A stretch of DNA of 64,000 nt from assembly GCF_001677475.2 (NCBI RefSeq), contig NZ_CP015229.1, one strand, 5' to 3'. This document shows, piece after piece, positions 6,083 to 42,348 of this stretch. Each line of letters opens with the position of its first letter. Position 1 is the stretch's first letter. A program made the translations under genes and the position numbers. Below the pieces are notes generated by a model. That model saw only the letters and a list, made by a program, of their open reading frames with translations, did not search any database and was not told where the DNA came from. The DNA comes from Escherichia coli (lineage in GTDB: Bacteria; Pseudomonadota; Gammaproteobacteria; Enterobacterales; Enterobacteriaceae).

Positions 6083-6787
6083 ATGTTGAACCGAAGAACA
6101 TTTAATGTATTCTGCGATGAATCCTGTCACCTACTAAATGATCATAATAAAGTCATGGTATTGGGTGCGCTTTGGTGTCCAGGCACTATCACAAAAAAAA
6201 TTGCTAGAGACATCAAGGAATTAAAATTAAAACACAATCTAAAACCTGATTTCGAAATCAAGTGGACTAAAGTATCTGCGTCCAAAGTTGAATTTTACTT
6301 AGATGTCGTAGATTACTTCTTCAGCAACCCAGCATTGCGCTTTAGAGGTGTTGTTGTTCCTGATAAAGAGCAACTGGACCATGCTCGATTCCATCAAGAT
6401 CATAATACTTTCTATTATAAGATGTTTTTTTATGTCTTAAAAAACATAATAGAAAGTAACAACACATACAATATCTACCTAGATATAAAAGATACTTTAG
6501 GTATTGAAAAAATTGAGAAATTAAGAGGGGTTCTTCACAATGATCGCTATGATTACAATCATGAGTCGATAAACAGAATTCAACATATACGATCTCATGA
6601 AGTGCAACAATTGCAGCTAACGGATCTTTTCATTGGTGCGTTAGGCTACGTTCATCGAGGAATGAATAGCAACGCGGGAAAAATCCAAGTCATAAACAGG
6701 ATAAAATCACATACAAACAGGGAGTTACTAAAAAGCACTCTTCCAACAGAAAGTAAATTTAATATTTTCGTGTGGGAGGCTCGCTGA
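6083..6787 (+). CDS. hypothetical protein, DUF3800-like (N-terminal CDES motif, C-terminal QLQLTDLF motif)
   Basis: 234 aa ORF, aagtggag RBS; strongly AT-rich compared with flanking phage genes. Confidence 0.55.
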   Translation: MLNRRTFNVFCDESCHLLNDHNKVMVLGALWCPGTITKKIARDIKELKLKHNLKPDFEIKWTKVSASKVEFYLDVVDYFFSNPALRFRGVVVPDKEQLDHARFHQDHNTFYYKMFFYVLKNIIESNNTYNIYLDIKDTLGIEKIEKLRGVLHNDRYDYNHESINRIQHIRSHEVQQLQLTDLFIGALGYVHRGMNSNAGKIQVINRIKSHTNRELLKSTLPTESKFNIFVWEAR

Positions 6788-7251
6788 TGCTTCAAATGCC
6801 AGATTTATTGTACTTCAATGGAAGTTGGCAAGAGTATATAGACGATGTATATGATGTTGTCAGAGAAGATATTTTAATCTCTAATATAACGTTTAAGGGT
6901 CTCCCTGTTCGATTACGTTATTCACCGGAATATGATGGGAAAGAGTTCGGATTTTGGCATTTAGTATCAGAGGGAAAAATAGAAGAAGAACGTATACCCG
7001 ATCTTGAACGGTGCAAACGAATTCGCTGGATCGCGCATATGATAAGGAATTATAACCATTGCGATATATCATGTTGGTCTGAAAGACGAGGACCAACTGA
7101 AGAGTGGGTAATCTGGAATGAGTATGAAAACTACGTTGTTGTGCTATCCGCACGTAGAGACTATTGGCTTCTCAAAACAGCCTATGTTGTAACCTATGAC
7201 AGTAAAATCAGAACACTCAAACAAAGCAGAAAAAGAGCACTTGGGACATAA
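6787..7251 (+). CDS. hypothetical protein, partner of the DUF3800-like gene
   Basis: ATG at 6787 overlaps upstream stop (TGATG), ggagg RBS 7 nt upstream; 154 aa; AT-rich; Cys/His cluster CKRIRWIAHMIRNYNHCDISC. Confidence 0.5.
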   Translation: MLQMPDLLYFNGSWQEYIDDVYDVVREDILISNITFKGLPVRLRYSPEYDGKEFGFWHLVSEGKIEEERIPDLERCKRIRWIAHMIRNYNHCDISCWSERRGPTEEWVIWNEYENYVVVLSARRDYWLLKTAYVVTYDSKIRTLKQSRKRALGT

Positions 7252-34239: not shown

Positions 34240-34330
34240 TTATGTTGCGCTTTACTGAGGAAGAGTATTAGACGTCAACTAGTTTTGCCGACTCGCGCCA
34301 ACTATACTGGCCGCACCCTTCAGGGCGACA

Positions 34331-35086
34331 TCAAGTCGCGCTTGTTACTGCCTTCGCTGTCTTTTTCCTGTAGCTTTCCCCTTTCAGTTCGAACATATAT
34401 CCGTGATGGAGCAGCCTGTCTGCCGCAGCCACCGCCATAGTCTCATCCACGAAGATGCTGCCCCACATGCTGAACGGATGGTTACTGGTTATCACCAGGC
34501 TCCCACGTTCATAGCGATGCGCTATTAACTCGAACAGCACACCCGTTTCGGCACTATCGCGTTTGACATAGCCAAGATCATCCACCACTATCACCCGGTA
34601 GCGATCCAGTTTCAGTAGCAGCTCATTCAGTTTCAACTGAGCTCTGGCTTTACGTAGTTCCTGCAACAGCTCTCCTGCGCTGTAGAACCGGGCCCGGTAG
34701 CCCTGACCTACTACGCCATCCACGATCGCTGCCGCCAGATGGCTTTTCCCCAACCCGCTGGCTCCGAACAGCAGAACGTTTTCTCCTGCATCAACCCAGT
34801 CTGTCGTTTCACAGAGTTGCCGGAACTGAGCTCCATTCAGTTCCGGCACCTGACTGAAGTCGTATTCGCTCAGCGTTTTGGCAACTGGCAACCGGGCCTC
34901 CTTTTTATAACGACGCAGTTTTTCACTCTCGCGCCACAGGAGTTCTTCATTGCATAGCGTCAGAAGATAGCGCGATGGTGTCCAGCCTTCTGCCAGCGCT
35001 CGTTTTTCCAGAGCGTGCCATTCAGCTCCAACTCGTGTCAGGCGTAGTTTACGCAGGCTATGTTCAAGGTGATGGATATTGCTCAC
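34331..35086 (-). CDS. istB: IS21-family helper ATPase IstB
   Basis: 251 aa; Walker A GASGLGKSHLAAA. Confidence 0.85.
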   Translation of the reverse strand: MSNIHHLEHSLRKLRLTRVGAEWHALEKRALAEGWTPSRYLLTLCNEELLWRESEKLRRYKKEARLPVAKTLSEYDFSQVPELNGAQFRQLCETTDWVDAGENVLLFGASGLGKSHLAAAIVDGVVGQGYRARFYSAGELLQELRKARAQLKLNELLLKLDRYRVIVVDDLGYVKRDSAETGVLFELIAHRYERGSLVITSNHPFSMWGSIFVDETMAVAAADRLLHHGYMFELKGESYRKKTAKAVTSAT

Positions 35087-36635
35087 TGCGAACCTCCCTT
35101 GCCACGCAGTAGTTGCTCATAACTGCTCAGGTTATGCTGTATCACATTGACTACCGGCAACGCCTTTTCTTTTATACCCAGGAAGCGCATCAGCCGGTGC
35201 AGATCCACGTTTCCCGGGGTATTCAGCATCTGCTCCATACCTTTTGCCACGACTGAGATATCGTCGTATCCTGCAGCCAGTTTCAGGGCATGTACCATCA
35301 GCCTTCCTGCCATATCGGGCTCCAGATGATTACATAAGCGACGCCACAGCCTCCGCCATTCATCGTCCGGCAGGATGTCATTTCTCAGCGTTGCATGGCA
35401 GAACGCACCGGGCTTTTTTGCCAGACTGTCGATCACATGTCGGAAGTCGATACGACGGGCCCGCGTCTTCCCTTTTTCTGGTCTGACGCGAGGGCAGCTC
35501 ATGACCTCGCTGCTGCCAACGTAACAGCTCAGACGATCGTCCCATAACCTGACCCGTAACAGTTGACCTACAAGCCGGGAAGGTACGCTGTAGACGACGT
35601 GCTTCACATTGATGGTACTGCTGCGACTAACCCTCACAGTCAGCTCATCATAGTCAGCACTGCGACGAAGCGGCAGCGGTTTCAGATGAAGACGTTCTTC
35701 CTTGACCAGATCCTGATTGTTACGGTTGTGCCGCATAACCTGCTGAGTGATGAAGGCCTGATATTCTTCTATGGTGCTGAAGTCGTTACTGCCCCGCAGT
35801 ATCAGCGCCTGACAGATACGCCTTTTCAGATGTCCGTGGGCACTTTCAACCGAGCCATTTTCGTGGCCCCGACCGGCATTATTGTGTACGCCCTGCATTC
35901 CGTAGTGCTGACAGAGAGTAGCATAACGCTCAGTCAGCTCGCGGCGTCCATTCCGTAGTGCTGACAGAGAGTAGCATAACGCTCAGTCAGCTCGCGGCGT
36001 CCATCTTCGCCCTGTTGTTTCCATGCTGCCCTCAGGCTGTCCGTTTTATGTTCTACCGGCACTCCGCCCAGTTGTCCGAGGGCTTCCTGCAGGCCTTCAG
36101 CCAGAGCAGAGAAGCTCTCACCACCCAGAACAACCCGCATCCAGCTCCAGTGGCTCCATTCCAGACGGAAGTGATACAACTTATGCGCCAACAACTTACC
36201 GGCGATGGTGACAACTACACCTTTCAGTTCAGTAAAGTCCGACAGGCCTCGCAGGCCGGGCTGATGTTGCTGGCGGAACATGACCTCCTGCTCTGTACCA
36301 TACTGTAGTTTCCATTCGCGAACCCGCCGTTGCATTGTTCTTCGAAGGCTGTTGGGGTACTGGCCGGGATATTTATCCTGTAGCATCTCCAGTAGAGTTG
36401 TTGGTGTCAGAGCCGGCCTCTCTTTCAACAGAGGAACAAGCATGCTGTCCCACACAGCTTCCAGAGGATCTTTGCGTGTGCGCCAGTGCCGAACACTGTT
36501 TTTTGCCCACTCTCCTTTTTCGATCCGACGACCAGAACGGACTGAGATACCAGCCTTCATGGCCGAGATATGCTGAGTTATACCTTTCTTACGCTGAGTC
36601 ATATAGTAACTGACCTGAGAAGTATTGAGCGTCAC
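35083..36635 (-). pseudogene. istA: IS21-family transposase IstA, frameshifted by a 53-bp tandem duplication
   Basis: N-terminal HTH ORF (36635-35934) and C-terminal catalytic ORF (35898-35083) separated by an exact 53-bp direct duplication. Confidence 0.75.
35896..36004. repeat. exact 53-bp tandem duplication inside istA
   Basis: 35899-35951 identical to 35952-36004 (tccgtagtgctgacagagagtagcataacgctcagtcagctcgcggcgtccat). Confidence 0.9.
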
Positions 36636-37452
36636 GCCATTTCCTGTTGGATCATGTAAATGACACTCAGGTTACAAAACCGGCCAGAATAATCGGCGCC
36701 AGGCGGACTGAGTTATTGTCGTCTCATAGAAGAGTTTCAGGCTTTTAGTGAGCGTCGAAATAAGGGGCGGTCCAGGCCAAAAACCAAAAAGGATCCATTC
36801 TTATCGCTTGCGCCGGTAAAAGAAGTTTCTCCACATGCGAAGGCACTTGCAGCACTGGCAAAGAACCCAGACCTGCGCGACGGAAATTGCGAGCACTTCG
36901 AGCAGGTTTTCATTTTTGATTACTTCGAACGCAAGCACCCTGACATCTATGAGCTGTTGCATGCAACGCCTAACGGAGGGAAACGTTCAAAAGCAACCGC
37001 CGGGAAAATGAAGGCTGAAGGGCAGAAAAAAGGTTATCCGGACATGAGTCTCGATAAAGCATGCGGTATTTATCACGGCATGCGAATTGAGCTTAAAGAA
37101 CCAAATGGTAAAGCCCCGACGAAAGAGCAGATCGCCTGGATGCGCAGGCTTAGAGAGGAAGGTTACTACGTCGTTCTTGCGTATGGTGCAGAACAAGCGA
37201 TAACCGCCATCCTGGAATACATGAGCCTTAAAAAGGGTGAGGCTATTGAGCATGTATTGAACGGTGACAAGTGGTTGTACGCTACATGAAATAATAAATT
37301 AATTAGTGCATATGTGTTCTTTGATACAGCGCACATTAACATCGGGAGAATAATCGTGTCATCCAAGGCTAATTATGAATCGCTGGCATCGATCATGCCG
37401 CGTAATGAACAGGAAGCAGATGCTGTAGTGGACCCGGTAATCGCTGAAATGA

Positions 37453-38115
37453 ATGCTCGCCTGGAGGCTGAATTTGCAGCTGAGAATGAACATACCACCC
37501 AGGGCGACTAGGACTGTTTTTTGTGTCGGTAGCGGTCCGTCACTCACTCGTGAGGACTGTGCTGCTATAGAAAAAACTGGCTGTTCAATCATCGCGGTTA
37601 ACAATTCCTGGCAGATGTTCGATGACATTTATGCCTTATACGCCGGTGATTTGTCATGGTGGAAGCAATACGGTTCCACCATACCGGGAGGGAGGTTCCG
37701 CAAAGTGACAGCCAACCTGGCGGCGGCGAAATCATTTTCGTTGGAGTACAGGCGATATTGTGGACCGGCGGAAGGGGTAAATAGCGGCGCGCAGGCTATC
37801 AGTCTGGCTGCTGAATCAGGGGCTGAAGTAGTGGTATTAGTCGGCTATGACTGTTCTCTGCAAAACGGCCTTCATTGGCATGGCGCGCACCCTCAAGCCC
37901 TACGGAATCCAACGCAGGTGTCTATTTCAAAATGGCAACAGCAGTTCCTGGATACCCGCAAAAAACACGCAGATTTACATATTTTGAATGCAAGTAGGAG
38001 CAGTGCAATTCAATGTTTCCCAAGAATAAATTTAGAGGCAGTGATCGCGTTATTATCGTCGGCAGTGGCCCAAGCGCCGCAAACTTTGTTGCGCCGCGCG
38101 GAGTGCCGATTATAG
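37453..38115 (+). CDS. Rossmann-like protein with GSGPS motif (MptE/DUF115-like)
   Basis: 220 aa; VFCVGSGPS...AVNN...GYD; 3' end overlaps next paralog. Confidence 0.5.
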   Translation: MLAWRLNLQLRMNIPPRATRTVFCVGSGPSLTREDCAAIEKTGCSIIAVNNSWQMFDDIYALYAGDLSWWKQYGSTIPGGRFRKVTANLAAAKSFSLEYRRYCGPAEGVNSGAQAISLAAESGAEVVVLVGYDCSLQNGLHWHGAHPQALRNPTQVSISKWQQQFLDTRKKHADLHILNASRSSAIQCFPRINLEAVIALLSSAVAQAPQTLLRRAECRL

Positions 38116-38639
38116 CGGTCAATGGGGCCATCGACTGGCTTAACCGCGCTTCTTATTTTTTCACCCTTGATCCATCCCCAGACAATATGCGGCGCGTTGG
38201 TCGTGGCCGCCGTCGCCGTGGTGTTTGTTATTGCATGGCACTACCCGATGTTAAAGAACGTGAAGTCAGAGACGGCGTTCTGTGCTTCCGTCGTGTGGCT
38301 GAACGTGGCATGGAGCCAAAAAATACGAATTCTCCCGAGTGGTGGGCGTGGCGCTGGTCCGCACATTTCGGACTTTGCGAAGATGAGAATGAAATTGCCA
38401 GCGGCAATAGTGCATATGGCGCTCTGAACCTGGCTTTCCATATCGGATTCAAACATGTCGCCCTGGTGGGCGTTGACGCTACACAAGAACCACGCGTTCA
38501 CTCCGGCGGCACGCCAAAAAATCTAAGTCACCTGCCTTTGTTATTCCAGTCTGCGCGTGAACAGATTGACGTTGTTTCATGCGGGAAAATGGGAGGTATT
38601 CCGCAGATGACTCTTAAAGAATGGCTGAAGAATACATGA
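38013..38639 (+). CDS. Rossmann-like protein with GSGPS motif, paralog of previous
   Basis: 208 aa; IIVGSGPS...AVNG...GVD. Confidence 0.5.
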
Positions 38640-39313
38640 TGGCACCCACAATTTATCACCGTATCGACGGTACCAAATACAGGAATGTCTGGGTTGTTGG
38701 TGATCTGCATGGTTGCTACACCAGACTGATGTCCGAACTCCATCGTGTGGATTTTGACCCGGCGCAGGATTTACTGATATCGGTCGGCGACCTTATCGAT
38801 CGCGGTACTGAAAATGTCGAATGTCTGGAACTATTGCAGATGCCCTGGTTCAGGGCAGTAATGGGGAACCATGAGCGGTTGATGCTCGATGCGTTAAGTC
38901 CTGATGGCAACGTGAATAACTGGCTAATGAATGGCGGACAATGGTTCTTCATGCTGGACACTGATCAGGAAATATTAGCCAAGGCGCTGGTGGAGTTGGT
39001 AAGACGACTGCCCTATATCATTGAGTTGAACACCGGGCAAGAAACTATCGTTATAGCCCATGCCGACTATCCGGATAATGAATATCAATTCGGTAAGGAG
39101 GTGCCGCTTTTCAACGTTGTCTGGGCGCGCGAGCGTATCAGTGATTCGATGGATGATATTGGTGGCGAAATTTCGGGCGCAGATCGTTTTATCTTTGGTC
39201 ACACTCCGGTGAAAATCCCGAAGACATTCTGGAATCAGCATTATATCGACACTGGTGCCGTATTTTGCGGAAACCTGACATTGATGAAAGTGAAAGGTGA
39301 TGGTGCAGCATGA
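38621..39313 (+). CDS. ppp: serine/threonine protein phosphatase (metallophosphatase, lambda PP-like)
   Basis: 230 aa; GDLHG, GDLIDRG, GNHE motifs. Confidence 0.8.
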
Positions 39314-40011
39314 AGATTGCTTTAGTTCTTCGCTCTGGTGGTGACTATAACGCTTCCGATGTGCAGTGGCTGGTTAATCAACTGCCAAAAGGCTATGAAA
39401 TTATTTGCCTGACAGACCTGAAGCGTTTACATGTACCTGGCGTCAAAGTTGTCCCATTGATCAACCAGTGGCAAAAGTGCCGTGGCTGGTGGGCGAAAAT
39501 CGAGTTGTTCCGACCGGATATAACCGATGATCTGTTCTATCTGGATTTGGACACGGTTATTGCCGGTGATATACGCCCAATCCTTGAGAATCCACCAACC
39601 AGCTTCACCATGCTTAGGGATTTTTACCATCCACAATATCGTGGTAGCGGTGCCCTGTGGATACCAAATAGTGTAAAAGCGCATATCTGGAGTTCATTCT
39701 GGCAAGATCCGGAAGGTTGGATTTCTCGTTGTGTCACTACTGAGTGCTGGGGTGATCAGGGGTTCTTACGGAAGGTTATGGGCGATGATACACCAGCATT
39801 TCAGGATCTGTATCCGGGATGGTTTGTAAGTTACAAGGCCGATGTTGTGGAACCTGGTTCAAAATATGCAAGCGCGCGTTACTCCAGGGGGAATGGGGCA
39901 TTACCAAAGGACTGCCGAATAATCTTTTTCCACGGCAAACCGCGACCTCGCGAAGTGTCAGAGGATTGGCTTCCCCTTATTAGCTCGTTTTTTGAGCTAG
40001 AATCAGAATAA
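39310..40011 (+). CDS. hypothetical protein with DxD motif (possible glycosyltransferase)
   Basis: 233 aa; [10 protein letters not shown]. Confidence 0.45.
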
Positions 40012-40012
40012 T

Positions 40013-40029
40013 ATTGCTCTAATAATTCC
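40013..40029. promoter_or_regulatory. C1 operator-like site, with inverted copy at 40063-40078
   Basis: attgctctaataattcc and tttttattagagcaat flank a terminator hairpin. Confidence 0.55.
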
Positions 40030-40038
40030 ATATTTTTA

Positions 40039-40068
40039 AAACGTGATGTACACTCATCACGTTTTTTA
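40039..40068. terminator. bidirectional intrinsic terminator
   Basis: aaaacgtgatg-tacactc-atcacgtttttt. Confidence 0.6.
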
Positions 40069-40312
40069 TTAGAGCAATCTGCAAGGTGCACTATGTGGCC
40101 ATTCCGACGGAAATATCACTACTGGCTGATCGCCTTTGTTACGCCGACCGGCGGTATCAGGCATGTCATCACCAGGTATCGCAACAAGAGGCTCACCTTA
40201 GCCAGAATTTTACAGGCTGCCATAGGTGAGGGGCTGGATACAAATTGCGTAGTCCTTCCACCTTCATACTTAGGAAAAATGACCGAAGAACAAGCTAATA
40301 CGGAACTTTGAA

Positions 40313-41575
40313 ATGAGCACTTCAGCACAAAACCAATCAATCGAAAATGTATCTATCCCTGACGTCCTGAATGCCGGTATCCCGGCCATTATCCAGAACA
40401 TCCGAGCCGCGCAACGCCGCGTTAGTTGTGATGACCTCACAGCGCGTTTTTTTGATAATGCGGTTCAGTCAGCGGAGATGCTTCACGCACAGCTTATTGA
40501 TGTTTATAACGCAGAAGCTGATAGCCATAACTCCCTGGTAGATGAAGCCGAAAATATGCAGTTGGATCTCGGCCTGAAGGGTAAAGAAATTGAAGAGCTT
40601 CATCTGCAAATTGAACATTTGAAACGCCAGCAACAGGATGCGATCGACGATGCGACGCATGACGCCAACCTGCGTGCTGATAATGCCGAACGTATAAGCA
40701 TTGAGCTGGAAACAAAACTCAATGAAATGACAGCGATGGTTGAACTGCGGAACTCACAGATTTCAACGCTAAAATCTCAATATAAAGAGATCATGAAACT
40801 TGATCCTTTTAACCTTGAGAAACGCTATAACAAAGCCAAAAGTGAGCGACAGGAACTGCGTAAGCAGGTCGCCGACCTTAACCAACAGCTCAAAAAGACT
40901 ATTAAAGATGCAAGTGAGGCGCGCGTGGCATTTGCTAATAAAAAAGCAGAGGTTACCGCGCTGGTTAATGAGAATGCCAAATTTGCGACGCTCAAGAAGG
41001 AAATGTATGGCATTACTGAGCGCCGTTTCCCTGCAAGCAAACTTCATCCGACGTTAGGGCAAATCTCCTTCTTCCCGCGCCTCCTGGCTTATGGGATCTC
41101 ATCGCCTAAAGAGTTCAATAACGAGCGTCCTTATATCGTTTCTAAGCTGGACTTTGCTTATCAGTTCTGCTGCGACATGGGCTATGCCATTGATATCCGA
41201 ATCAACGAATGGTTGATGCCAAACTTCCAGCCGTTGGCAATTTTCCGCGAGTTCCAGCCGGAAGGTTGGGTAGAGTTCTTCCATGAATTGATCTGTAAAG
41301 AGATGGAAAGCCGCCGCCCGGAACTGGTCCGTCGAGTTGAGTGGGCGCAAGAGGTTATGTTGGCAGATGCAGAGCTGCCGTTCGAACCGGAATTCATTGA
41401 TGATCTGGCAACTAAAGGACTGCATACCCTGTTTGATGTGGTTACCCGCCGTCATGAGCAGTTGGTTGTCGAATTGGGTTTAGAGGAAACTGCGGCAAGA
41501 AGACTTCTCGATGTTTGCTATGCACGTAGCGATGCATGGGAAAAAGAGAACGGCGGCACTATTTACGTTCGCTGA
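40313..41575 (+). CDS. hypothetical coiled-coil protein
   Basis: 420 aa ORF. Confidence 0.5.
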   Translation: MSTSAQNQSIENVSIPDVLNAGIPAIIQNIRAAQRRVSCDDLTARFFDNAVQSAEMLHAQLIDVYNAEADSHNSLVDEAENMQLDLGLKGKEIEELHLQIEHLKRQQQDAIDDATHDANLRADNAERISIELETKLNEMTAMVELRNSQISTLKSQYKEIMKLDPFNLEKRYNKAKSERQELRKQVADLNQQLKKTIKDASEARVAFANKKAEVTALVNENAKFATLKKEMYGITERRFPASKLHPTLGQISFFPRLLAYGISSPKEFNNERPYIVSKLDFAYQFCCDMGYAIDIRINEWLMPNFQPLAIFREFQPEGWVEFFHELICKEMESRRPELVRRVEWAQEVMLADAELPFEPEFIDDLATKGLHTLFDVVTRRHEQLVVELGLEETAARRLLDVCYARSDAWEKENGGTIYVR

Positions 41576-41599
41576 TAGTTACAGTGTCACTTTTAATGC

Positions 41600-41632
41600 T
41601 GGTGGAGTGCGCCCACCAGCATTTTTTTCGTC
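41600..41632 (+). terminator. intrinsic terminator
   Basis: gctggtgg-agtgcg-cccaccagc then atttttttc. Confidence 0.6.
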
Positions 41633-41647
41633 CAATGAGGAGGGCAT

Positions 41648-42154
41648 TTGAGTATTTTCAATAAACACGCACACCAGGAACGTCCGTACATCGTCATAGT
41701 AGATATTGATGGGACGATATCAGAGGCAACGGAAGACAGGCTGCATTTACTTCCACCACCAGGTAAAGGTGCATTAACAGAGCACTGGAACGAGTTTAAC
41801 CTTGCCTGTGAAACTGATGCTCCCATTACTCCAGTTATTGATATGGTGCGCCAGTTATCCAGCATTTACACGGTCTGGTTTGTAACCGGGCGCTGTGAGA
41901 TCGCAAGGGATAAAACACGAGCCTGGCTGCGAAAGTACGTAACAAACGGGGATGAGCCTTTGCTATCTATGCGTCCTGCCACCGATGACAGAAATGACGG
42001 TCCAGCAAAGATTGATCTCCTGAAGAAAATTGGTCTAAGTAAAATTGCGTTCGCGCTGGAAGATAAGATTGAAGTGGCGCGTGTTTTCAGGAGTCACGGC
42101 GTACTTACATTAATGGTTAGGGAGTATGAAAATGCGCTTCTTCATCAACAATAA
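41648..42154 (+). CDS. HAD-superfamily phosphatase-like protein
   Basis: 168 aa; IVIVDIDGTI motif. Confidence 0.5.
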   Translation: MSIFNKHAHQERPYIVIVDIDGTISEATEDRLHLLPPPGKGALTEHWNEFNLACETDAPITPVIDMVRQLSSIYTVWFVTGRCEIARDKTRAWLRKYVTNGDEPLLSMRPATDDRNDGPAKIDLLKKIGLSKIAFALEDKIEVARVFRSHGVLTLMVREYENALLHQQ

Positions 42155-42163
42155 TTGCTCTAA

Positions 42164-42180
42164 TAAATGTTGATTTTTAA
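42164..42180. promoter_or_regulatory. C1 operator-like site
   Basis: attgctctaataaatgt. Confidence 0.55.
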
Positions 42181-42348
42181 AACAGAGAAAGTGAAAATAA
42201 AAACATGCCGCAAGGCGCGGCATGTATCCAATCAATCACAGGAGCTGAAAATATGAACACGGCATTCAAAATCATTATGGCCGCGATCTATTTCTGGCTG
42301 TTCTCTATCACTTTTGGCGGCATCGTCGCGCATGGGTAAGGGGGATGC

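Follow-up and report, generated by a model that had tools for sequence, protein, structure and literature searches.

A conserved cassette in the phage P1 pmgN-pmgQ operon encodes WaaZ- and Maf-related transferase paralogs with a GT8-type enzyme and may build a glycan on a virion or other surface protein

The window analysed here, a 64,000-nucleotide stretch of an Escherichia coli contig (NZ_CP015229.1), is a P1-type phage-plasmid, and positions 37453-40011 hold its pmgO-pmgP-ppp-pmgQ operon, 98% identical to that of P1. P1 records agree with it at 98.0-98.5% nucleotide identity over 5.3 kb and P7 at 97.5%, and the genes annotated in P1 as pmgO, pmgP, ppp and pmgQ (P1 coordinates 79495-82150) map exactly to ORFs of the window, with gene order kept. 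The region thus belongs to the Punavirus P1 pmgN-pmgQ operon. All four ORFs drawn by the initial annotation lie where it placed them, on the + strand, and are given here together with pmgN:

37356-37511, + strand: pmgN, 51 aa, taken from the P1 annotation; a longer ORF spans 37314-37511, and the start of pmgO as annotated lies within the gene
37453-38115, + strand: pmgO, 220 aa, predicted WaaZ/Maf/GT42-fold transferase, paralog 1
38013-38639, + strand: pmgP, 208 aa, predicted WaaZ/Maf/GT42-fold transferase, paralog 2
38621-39313, + strand: ppp, 230 aa, lambda-type Ser/Thr (PPP-family) phosphatase
39310-40011, + strand: pmgQ, 233 aa, predicted GT8-like retaining GT-A glycosyltransferase

That these ORFs are pmgO, pmgP, ppp and pmgQ, already named in P1 and non-essential there, escaped the initial annotation. 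Knockouts in P1, for which a single-gene set exists (PMC9024508), show each of the four to be dispensable, and no function has been assigned to them; their label since 2004, "putative morphogenetic function", is a placeholder. For pmgN the two kinds of evidence disagree, a knockout indicating a non-essential gene and CRISPRi knockdown an essential one. In the literature we found pmgO, pmgP and pmgQ never tied to WaaZ, Maf or glycosylation, and PADLOC defence models gave zero matches over the sequence.

The operon is bounded by the following control elements:

37257-37283, + strand: PpmgN, predicted sigma-70 promoter, mapped from the P1 annotation
37296-37312, - strand: Oppp, C1 operator, mapped from the P1 annotation
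40013-40029, + strand: OpmgRa, C1 operator, consensus match, so named in P1
40038-40065, unstranded: intrinsic terminator hairpin and T-run, between OpmgRa and OpmgRb
40062-40078, - strand: OpmgRb, C1 operator, consensus match, so named in P1

The positions of PpmgN and Oppp follow from the P1 annotation as locus coordinate + 34399. Through these two elements the operon is predicted to be controlled by the C1 repressor, and the P1 annotation gives it as repressed in lysogens. Oppp is weak, with 4 mismatches to the consensus, and was hence missed by our window scan, which allowed 3; that consensus matched 15 times in the window against 0.32 expected. The C1 operators previously proposed to flank a terminator were recovered as such, the hairpin between them (-13.4 kcal/mol, z -5.3) being followed by a U-run, and together these elements mark where the operon stops and the pmgR-pmgS unit begins.

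PmgO and PmgP had been described as overlapping paralogs with GSGPS, AVN and GxD motifs, and we confirmed both the motifs and the relationship. The motifs lie at residues 25-30 (VGSGPS), 48-50 (AVN) and 131-133 (GYD) of PmgO and at residues 16-21 (VGSGPS), 35-37 (AVN) and 153-155 (GVD) of PmgP, in which an Arg-rich stretch is also conserved, along with a PEWWxWRW insertion. Pairwise comparison detects the N-terminal motif only (BLASTP E 0.003), and the family profiles align over 163 columns (hhalign 98.2%, E 5e-14); a natural PmgO-PmgP fusion, P0051, also exists. A model built from a concatenated PmgO-PmgP alignment, in which row pairing was arbitrary, reached a pTM of 0.52, and its inter-domain arrangement is not interpretable. 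In the family alignment residues 1-17 and 204-220 of PmgO are not conserved and, because the first of these segments is not, the real pmgO start may be the ATG at 37486. The overlap between the two genes, estimated earlier at about 100 nt, measures 103 nt, with pmgP read in the -1 frame. We considered a programmed -1 frameshift fusing PmgO to PmgP, suggested by a canonical A_AAT_TTA heptamer at 38028-38034 in this overlap and by the natural fusion, and rejected it; no such heptamer occurs in phiNP, EP_H11, L007 or XacN1, and we treat the one found here as chance.

The closest sequence-level relatives of both proteins belong to the WaaZ family. Against a 38-sequence WaaZ-family alignment, PmgP aligned over 195 columns (hhalign 98.9%, E 1e-17) and PmgO over 176 columns (97.7%, E 1.3e-12), and a WaaZ-family HMM scored them at 41.7 and 21.5 bits, respectively (hmmsearch). 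Neither protein matched PF27901 in our Pfam search, which used a copy that may predate that model; the P0051 fusion has a faint precomputed match to it (WaaZ_KDO_III). WaaZ, the KdoIII transferase of E. coli K-12 and R2-core LPS, shares SGPS, AVNG and helix-GxD motifs with PmgO and PmgP, and all three are soluble, without transmembrane segments, and found in hosts that supply CMP-Kdo. WaaZ is a chromosomal protein of about 283 aa, whose gene belongs to the waa cluster and has a genetic link to LPS (PMC6358824), whereas PmgO and PmgP are about 200 aa long, phage-borne, paired and encoded in structural or late operons; their pairwise similarity to WaaZ itself is weak, the likeness being known from profiles, and Kdo transfer by them is putative. 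Whichever target applies, the entry for PmgP (PHROG 2111, "unknown function") should be corrected, as profile comparison makes it a paralog of PmgO and a relative of the WaaZ family.

An MptE/DUF115-like reading of the two proteins survived in part. They have a fold in common with a solved MptE-like member, and some family members carry a precomputed PF01973 match, but their own scores against Pfam MptE-like (PF01973, formerly DUF115), 23.4 bits for PmgO and 20.9 for PmgP, fall below the gathering threshold of 34.6, and the partial matches span just the C-terminal SG...GxD segment. Both also share the fold and the nucleotide-binding motifs (N-terminal GxGPS, SG helix, GxD) of GT42 and Maf enzymes; in structural comparison Maf matched better than MptE-like proteins, and sialyltransferases matched as well. 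In CstII, one of the GT42 sialyltransferases CstI and CstII, the N-terminal G-x-G-P-S and the S-G...G-x-D align with PmgO and PmgP at a similarity that is not significant (E about 1), and invariant histidines after GxD (H141, H143 and H146 in PmgO; H173 in PmgP) are candidate counterparts of CstII His188. Maf and GT42 enzymes use CMP-activated nonulosonic acids, and Maf modifies protein in the cytoplasm. Maf (PDB 5MU5) is about 630 aa long and has flanking flagellin-binding domains, which PmgO and PmgP lack.

The ORF singled out earlier for its DxD motif, PmgQ, is by profile and model a predicted GT8-type retaining GT-A glycosyltransferase. Its DLD (residues 79-81) has D79 and D81 invariant in the alignment, its C-terminal H208-G209-x-P211-x-P213 is at least 90% conserved at the four named positions, and the two motifs align to the LDAD and HYTGATKPW of WaaJ. 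The PmgQ profile matched Gat1 (E 1.1e-7) and glycogenin (E 1e-4) in the PDB, and a Foldseek search with the AF2 model (pLDDT 95.4) returned GT8 chains, LgtC included, as nearly all of its top 50 matches (E 1e-8 to 1.5e-6). Pfam Glyco_transf_8 (PF01501) left PmgQ unmatched and matched 8 of 53 relatives weakly (best E 0.026). Polyubiquitin matches to the profile were discarded as repeat-summation artefacts, each single domain having E > 400. With the GT8 enzymes Gat1, glycogenin, GlyE, LgtC and WaaJ/WaaO, PmgQ thus has in common the GT-A fold, the DxD and the C-terminal His motif; compared with them it is shorter (233 aa), lies under the Pfam threshold and has LRSGG and GWWAKxELFRPD motifs of its own. 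The HMM and structure-based annotation that had been proposed as a check yielded WaaZ- and GT8-type transferases, and the MptE-like assignment stayed below threshold.

The product of ppp is the lambda-type phosphatase that had been suspected, matching 1G5B over its full length (E 1.5e-94) and scoring 59.5 bits against a cutoff of 21.5 for Pfam Metallophos. Because it falls below the NCBIfam equivalog cutoffs for PrpA and PrpB (278.7 against 326 and 240.1 against 332), we regard it as a phage-type enzyme and not an ortholog of the host proteins.

A scan of genome contigs returned just 14 loci, and scanning IMG/VR with the PmgP alignment returned P1 clones only; a divergent PmgQ alignment recovered diverse loci there, with at least 600 PmgQ relatives. 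The order O-P-(X)-Q is common to P1, phiNP, EP_H11, XacN1, L003 and L007, where X is a variable "accessory slot" between pmgP and pmgQ that ppp occupies in P1 and a GT1-type enzyme in EP_H11. In XacN1 a TylF methyltransferase is fused to PmgQ, in L099 and L103 class-I methyltransferases lie beside the cassette, and partners in IMG/VR loci include FkbM, Methyltransf_24 and TylF methyltransferases, sulfotransferases and a PIG-L deacetylase. What is conserved as a unit is PmgO/PmgP plus PmgQ, not all four genes, and PmgP is 54-63% identical between phages with unrelated capsid proteins.

We dereplicated the IMG/VR loci to 43 and, using crude ORF calling, looked at the closest large gene upstream: at least 20 of these genes encode a recognised major capsid protein, and the other 23 gave no capsid Pfam match. 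These capsid neighbours span five capsid Pfam families, the small flanking genes in IMG/VR loci encode gp6-like connectors and head-completion proteins, and the capsid-adjacent position recurs in L006-L008. P1 is an exception, its operon not adjoining the capsid gene. In L003, phiNP, L098 and the Serratia locus L004 the cassette adjoins lysis genes. Locus L104, on an Enterobacteriaceae chromosome, has PmgO, PmgP and PmgQ interspersed among four Big_1 proteins, one of them an inverse-autotransporter invasin, and in L004 copies of PmgO stand on either side of Big_1 proteins; we found no Big_1-like protein within the window.

The gene identities, the folds, the paralogy and the WaaZ and GT8 relationships are established here, and our best explanation of them, held tentatively, is that a late-expressed PmgO/PmgP/PmgQ cassette builds a glycan on a virion protein or another surface protein. 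For the donor sugars, the acceptor and a PmgO-PmgP complex we infer the following. The cassette would be switched on once the C1 repressor is lifted and in late growth. PmgO and PmgP, as paired WaaZ/Maf-type sialyltransferase-fold enzymes that probably act jointly, would use a CMP-activated donor to transfer an acidic 2-keto sugar. As we found no sugar-nucleotide synthesis genes near the cassette in P1 or the other carriers examined, host CMP-Kdo is the most plausible donor; it must also be assumed because E. coli K-12 makes no CMP-nonulosonic acids. PmgQ would carry out a metal-dependent, retaining transfer of a hexose from a UDP-sugar. The product would be a short glycan attached to a protein exposed at the surface (for phages, the likeliest is a protein of the virion such as the capsid), and Ppp is probably unrelated to its construction. 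A nucleotide, sugar or protein modification pathway had been suggested at the outset; its sugar branch is supported and its nucleotide (DNA) branch is not.

Several observations favour this explanation. The P0051 fusion and the kept O-P-(X)-Q order support the pairing of PmgO with PmgP; tailoring enzymes and glycosyltransferases as neighbours support a glycan context; capsid and head-completion neighbours support a link to the virion; and the Big_1 and invasin islands L104 and L004 support a protein target outside phages. Several of the closest solved relatives, namely Maf, Gat1, glycogenin and GlyE, act on proteins or protein-linked glycans. Against a virion target stand the activity of the closest sequence-level family, WaaZ, on LPS and not protein, the position of the P1 operon away from the capsid gene, the absence from PmgO and PmgP of the extra substrate-binding domains of Maf, and the lysis-gene contexts, together with capsid proteins that, where they adjoin the cassette, show no obvious Ser/Thr-rich (C-terminal) extension. 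The conservation of PmgP across unrelated capsids also fits a conserved host acceptor better, unless PmgP extends a chain and does not start it. Our literature search found no report of virion glycosylation for P1, and glycosylation goes unmentioned in the paper on the P1 virion proteome. We know of no precedent for protein-linked Kdo. The more specific proposal, that P1 and hundreds of other Proteobacteria phages coat their capsids, or other virion proteins, with a short acidic glycan which a dedicated WaaZ/Maf-type plus GT8 cassette makes from host CMP-Kdo and UDP-hexose, is doubtful; if true, no earlier system of virion glycosylation would be known from phages of Gram-negative bacteria, and no earlier case of Kdo linked to protein.

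Two known systems resemble the proposed one. In the mycobacteriophage Che8 and its relatives (Freeman et al. 2023, cited in PMC11256854), phage glycosyltransferases decorate capsid proteins using host sugar nucleotides; the host type differs, and the genes are found towards the 3' end of the genome and not beside the capsid gene. For P1 the glycan is a prediction. The mycobacteriophage glycosyltransferases are dispensable in laboratory growth, and to our knowledge no Maf/WaaZ-type enzyme takes part in mycobacteriophage virion glycosylation. Aah and TibC O-glycosylate the adhesins AIDA-I and TibA in the cytoplasm with a sugar nucleotide that is an LPS precursor, the enzyme gene adjoining the adhesin gene. 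This pairing resembles the L104 and L004 islands, in which PmgO, PmgP and PmgQ genes lie amid invasin-type Big_1 proteins; Aah and TibC belong to an unrelated enzyme family and use ADP-heptose as donor.

The main rival, which we consider unlikely, is remodelling of the host LPS core. Acting like WaaZ at the inner membrane, PmgP and PmgO would add an extra Kdo to the inner core of Kdo2-lipid A, and PmgQ would attach a hexose to the Kdo branch, in parallel to the waaZ and waaS glycoform switch of the host; newly made LPS would in consequence be missing the distal outer core to which P1 tail fibres bind, so that fewer progeny are lost to cell debris, or lysis would be helped by a weaker outer membrane. 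WaaZ-family homology equal in strength to the PmgO/PmgP paralogy argues for it, as do the faint WaaZ_KDO_III match of the fusion homolog and the finding that WaaZ-dependent KdoIII glycoforms lack the terminal GlcIII-HepIV and cannot bear O-antigen (PMC6358824). LPS core and LOS glycosyltransferases are moreover GT8 enzymes, with LgtC among the fold matches of PmgQ and WaaJ aligning at its motifs; PmgP is well conserved over hosts that all have a Kdo inner core, its Trp/Arg-rich insertion could be a membrane-interface element, and the lysis-gene neighbours fit. Set against these points, most loci have the cassette flanked by capsid and head-completion genes, LPS made late cannot displace the LPS already at the surface, and sulfotransferase and methyltransferase partners and invasin islands suit protein glycans better. 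Known LPS-converting genes of phages are usually neighbours of the integrase or tail genes and active in lysogens; in P1 lysogens the operon is repressed.

The idea that all four genes form one pathway, with Ppp dephosphorylating, for example, an acceptor or a sugar-phosphate intermediate for the transferases, is improbable. Translational coupling links ppp to both of its neighbours, through a 19-nt overlap with pmgP and an ATGA overlap with pmgQ; its position is precisely the slot that elsewhere holds glycan-tailoring enzymes, and the annotated P1-type relatives compared have the same arrangement. Ppp is nonetheless missing from every non-P1 cassette examined, and phage D6 has a ppp that is 89% nucleotide-identical, among nin-like early genes and without pmgO, pmgP or pmgQ; phage lambda, source of the 1G5B phosphatase, is not known to have such a cassette either. 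Ppp is probably a mosaic passenger of the accessory slot and, with either target, should not be annotated as part of the cassette.

That PmgO and PmgP are MptE- or thiamine-pyrophosphokinase-type diphosphokinases acting on a small molecule (pterin, vitamin or nucleotide) is very improbable: MptE-like is their sole Pfam match, at a sub-threshold score, but the structural ranking favours Maf, PmgP scores 41.7 bits for the WaaZ family against 20.9 for MptE-like, and the cassette is constantly found with a GT8 enzyme, sugar-tailoring enzymes and further glycosyltransferases. In decades of restriction and cloning work P1 DNA has behaved like ordinary DNA, and P1 knockouts of the operon genes leave antirestriction unchanged. 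Hypermodification of phage DNA with sugars by the cassette, at or before packaging, is for these reasons the least probable reading of all: DNA-modifying phage glycosyltransferases exist (10.1101/2023.12.21.572611), and the cassette lies within the head-gene region of many phages, but no base-activating enzyme (hydroxymethylase, TET-type or kinase) is present at any locus examined.

Should the virion be the target of PmgO, PmgP and PmgQ, virion glycosylation would extend from mycobacteriophages to phages of Gram-negative bacteria, with a bearing on phage immunogenicity, stability and therapy; should LPS be the target, the cassette would represent a new, late-acting route by which a phage edits its own receptor. 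In either case P1, a workhorse phage for which knockouts are available, would offer a tractable model for a gene set found in at least 600 viral contigs.

The four open reading frames of the region map exactly onto genes of phage P1, and the 19 full-length P1-type records, P1, P7, RCS47 and SJ46 among them, match the segment at 36900-42200 with 97.4-98.5% identity. The P1 annotation places the sigma-70 promoter PpmgN and the C1 operator Oppp upstream of the operon; two further C1 operators at its end appear both in that annotation and in an operator scan of the window:

37453-38115, + strand, pmgO
38013-38639, + strand, pmgP
38621-39313, + strand, ppp
39310-40011, + strand, pmgQ
40013-40029, operon end, C1 operator OpmgRa
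40062-40078, operon end, C1 operator OpmgRb

OpmgRa and OpmgRb flank a hairpin (-13.4 kcal/mol, z -5.3) followed by a U-run, so that the initial annotation of four ORFs, C1 operators and a terminator is borne out in every detail. P1 labels pmgO, pmgP and pmgQ "putative morphogenetic function"; P7 names them hdmB, hdmC and hdmD ("head morphogenesis"), noting similarity of HdmB to orf7 of Pseudomonas phage D3. In RefSeq, pmgO is already given as a sialyltransferase and pmgQ as a glycosyltransferase. CRISPRi and knockout both score each of the four genes as non-essential in P1 (PMC10695390; PMC9024508), and the literature searched reports no function for any of them.

Several features of the surrounding genes were also observed. 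CRISPRi knockdown scored pmgN as essential (EOP 1.4e-2), whereas its knockout is non-essential and knockdowns of downstream genes are harmless. The annotated 59-nt pmgN/pmgO overlap (37453-37511) may be an annotation artefact, since the first 11-17 residues of annotated PmgO are unconserved and most homologs begin near the second Met (ATG at 37486). Upstream, an IS21-family element (34262-36728; 86% identical to a stretch annotated as transposase and AAA family ATPase in a Klebsiella phage) is inserted at the 5' end of pmgM (36711-37289). Its transposase reading frame is divided into two ORFs (35083-35898 and 35934-36635, - strand), one with a Mu-transposase C-terminal domain. The insertion replaced the first six codons of pmgM (MLRFTE in P1), so this VRR-NUC gene has lost its start, and the late promoter LPpmgL now lies about 2.5 kb from the pmgN-Q operon. 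Downstream, PmgS (40313-41575) has weak coiled-coil-type matches only, and Pap (41648-42154) has a polynucleotide-kinase-type HAD phosphatase domain (PF25109, E 7e-12), giving P1, with Ppp, two phosphatases within 3 kb.

Compared pairwise, PmgO and PmgP are similar only in the N-terminal GSGPS...AVN stretch (BLASTP E 0.003); the alignment of their family profiles is full-length (hhalign 98.2%, E 5e-14, 163 columns), which identifies them, at the sequence level, as genuine, ancient paralogs. A natural head-to-tail PmgO-PmgP fusion of 376 aa from a phage contig (P0051) argues that the two work jointly. In the window, the frame of pmgP is -1 relative to pmgO, and two canonical slippery heptamers occur in their overlap (38013-38115), T_TTC_CCA at 38016 and A_AAT_TTA at 38028; a programmed -1 slip would produce a comparable fusion, but the heptamers are absent from four other O-P pairs and are probably due to chance. 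The highest-scoring structural match of PmgO/PmgP is the flagellin glycosyltransferase Maf (5MU5, 15.1), also returned by Foldseek, followed by archaeal MptE/HPPK (8SD5, 12.3), Campylobacter sialyltransferase CstI (2P56, 10.7), M. tuberculosis SteA (9HMY, 10.5), thiamine pyrophosphokinases (7.6-10.2) and mammalian GT29 sialyltransferases (7.7-9.1). The MptE/DUF115-like assignment first made for the paralogs agrees with the fold, but Maf scores higher, and the MptE-like matches, the only ones in Pfam, are all sub-threshold. PHROGs lists PmgO as "alpha-2,3-sialyltransferase" and leaves the function of PmgP unassigned.

P0051 also has a faint precomputed Pfam match to WaaZ_KDO_III, the family of WaaZ, the enzyme that E. 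coli needs to attach a third Kdo to its LPS inner core (PMC6358824). Profile comparison with an alignment of 38 WaaZ-family sequences, collected by exhaustive search, showed that both PmgP (98.9%, E 1e-17, 195 columns; WaaZ HMM 41.7 bits) and PmgO (97.7%, E 1.3e-12, 176 columns; 21.5 bits) align with WaaZ. These comparisons indicate that PmgO, PmgP and WaaZ are roughly equidistant members of one superfamily, which includes enzymes using CMP-activated 2-keto sugars.

In PmgQ, the DxD noted initially is invariant across the family alignment (D79, D81), H208-G209-x-P211-x-P213 is near-invariant, and LRSGG and GWWAKxELF are family-specific. Its profile retrieved GT8 enzymes from PDB sequences (Gat1, 1.1e-7; glycogenin, ~1e-4; GlyE, 2.4e-4); polyubiquitin matches in that search were repeat artefacts. 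The top 50 Foldseek matches to the AF2 model (pLDDT 95.4) were mostly GT8 chains (Gat1, glycogenin, WbbM, GlyE, LgtC, LARGE1, XXYLT1), and the two metal-site motifs line up with those of E. coli WaaJ. By profile and model, PmgQ is a divergent retaining glycosyltransferase of GT8 type.

The O-P-Q order recurs in the lambdoid Citrobacter phage phiNP (downstream of lysis genes), the 111-kb coliphage EP_H11, the jumbo phage XacN1, a D3-like Pseudomonas prophage (L007) and L003, a contig with a SU10/P22-type portal match in which O and P are fused. An Ochrobactrum locus (L006) has P-Q only and a Martelella-like contig (L008) has O and Q, in the same head-module position; in L006, L007 and L008 a major capsid gene and a head-completion gene flank the cassette. 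The deposited phiNP annotation (L010, 6450-7621) omits the PmgO homolog, leaving 6450-7091 unannotated, and begins the PmgP homolog at 7091, 3' of the GSGPS motif; a likely start at an ATG near 7001 would give a P1-like overlap of ~90 nt.

The slot between P and Q, occupied by ppp in P1, holds a GT1-type enzyme in EP_H11, a TylF methyltransferase fused to Q in XacN1 and class-I methyltransferases in two further loci (L099, L103). Ppp, first annotated as a lambda-PP-type phosphatase, is a full-length lambda phosphatase homolog (1G5B, E 1.5e-94). No cassette examined outside the P1 type contains ppp, and in phage D6 an 89% identical ppp sits among nin-like early genes, with pmgO, pmgP and pmgQ absent. 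This speaks against the proposal that all four genes form one pathway, and we read Ppp as a mosaic passenger outside the cassette; a tailoring role is possible.

Scanning IMG/VR with a divergent PmgQ alignment returned at least 600 relatives, the best 80 of which gave 58 loci after dereplication; the counts are approximate because genes were called with a simple greedy ORF picker. A PmgO-like gene lies immediately upstream of Q in 31 of these 58 loci and a PmgP-like gene nearby in 5. In 43 loci a large ORF occurs up to three genes upstream; at least 20 of these ORFs encode recognised major capsid proteins, spanning five capsid Pfam families, and three more encode collagen-repeat proteins. Small or downstream neighbours in these best loci comprise six gp6-like connectors, four head-completion proteins and two HK97-gp10-like proteins, together with enzymes for glycan tailoring: six methyltransferases (FkbM, Methyltransf_24 and TylF), three sulfotransferases and one PIG-L deacetylase. 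Collagen-triple-helix-repeat genes directly follow the portal gene in an alphaproteobacterial MAG contig (L106, 4258-5091) and an Enterovirga contig (L107, 6188-7378), each with a PmgO-like gene a few genes downstream.

Outside phages, cassette relatives occur in two chromosomal islands, interleaved on both strands with invasin and Big_1/Invasin_D3 proteins. In Enterobacteriaceae bacterium UBA7338 (L104, 235-14416), PmgO, PmgP and PmgQ lie among four Big_1 proteins, one of them an inverse-autotransporter invasin of 1177 aa; in Serratia plymuthica (L004, 4014-17785), Big_1 proteins lie between two PmgO copies, and PmgQ-PmgP adjoin phage lysis genes. These may be adhesin-glycosylation islands. 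The Serratia island also encodes a lipoxygenase.

HMM and structure-based annotation thus gives Maf/WaaZ-like PmgO and PmgP, GT8-type PmgQ and a lambda-type phosphatase. That PmgO/PmgP and PmgQ form a glycan-building cassette drawing on host sugar nucleotides is highly probable, given their folds and families, the natural PmgO-PmgP fusion and the other glycosyltransferases and sugar-tailoring enzymes that constantly accompany them. The likeliest donor for PmgO/PmgP would be host CMP-Kdo, since no sugar-nucleotide synthesis genes lie near the cassette in P1 or the other carriers examined, and E. coli K-12 produces CMP-Kdo and, to our knowledge, no CMP-nonulosonic acids. The acceptors would be surface-exposed proteins, favoured by the repeated placement beside capsid genes of different families, by the company of adhesins in chromosomes and by the action of Maf, Gat1, glycogenin and GlyE, all among the closest relatives of known structure, on proteins or protein-linked glycans. 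Taken whole, a cassette that builds a glycan on surface-exposed proteins, and on virion proteins in phages, is our preferred but tentative reading.

P1 binds the distal outer core of LPS, and the main alternative is that the cassette edits the LPS inner core as WaaZ does. The strong WaaZ homology, the 54-63% identity of PmgP between phages with unrelated capsids, the lysis genes adjoining some cassettes and the loss of the distal outer core in WaaZ-dependent glycoforms (PMC6358824) would all fit. However, the location in head modules, the sulfotransferase and methyltransferase partners and the inability of late-made LPS to substitute for surface LPS already present make this rather improbable. 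A pyrophosphokinase role for PmgO/PmgP and DNA modification by the cassette are both unlikely. Of the pathways first suggested, sugar modification is the one supported, through folds, families and partner enzymes, and nucleotide modification has no support.

The genes themselves were already known; this analysis adds the PmgO/PmgP paralogy and WaaZ link, the natural fusion, the widespread O/P + Q cassette with its variable accessory slot, the capsid-gene adjacency, the adhesin association in chromosomes and the exclusion of Ppp. We know of no characterised phage system combining a Maf/WaaZ-type enzyme with a GT8 enzyme. Virion glycosylation has been documented for mycobacteriophages only (PMC11256854), and existing P1 knockouts make the function of the cassette directly testable.
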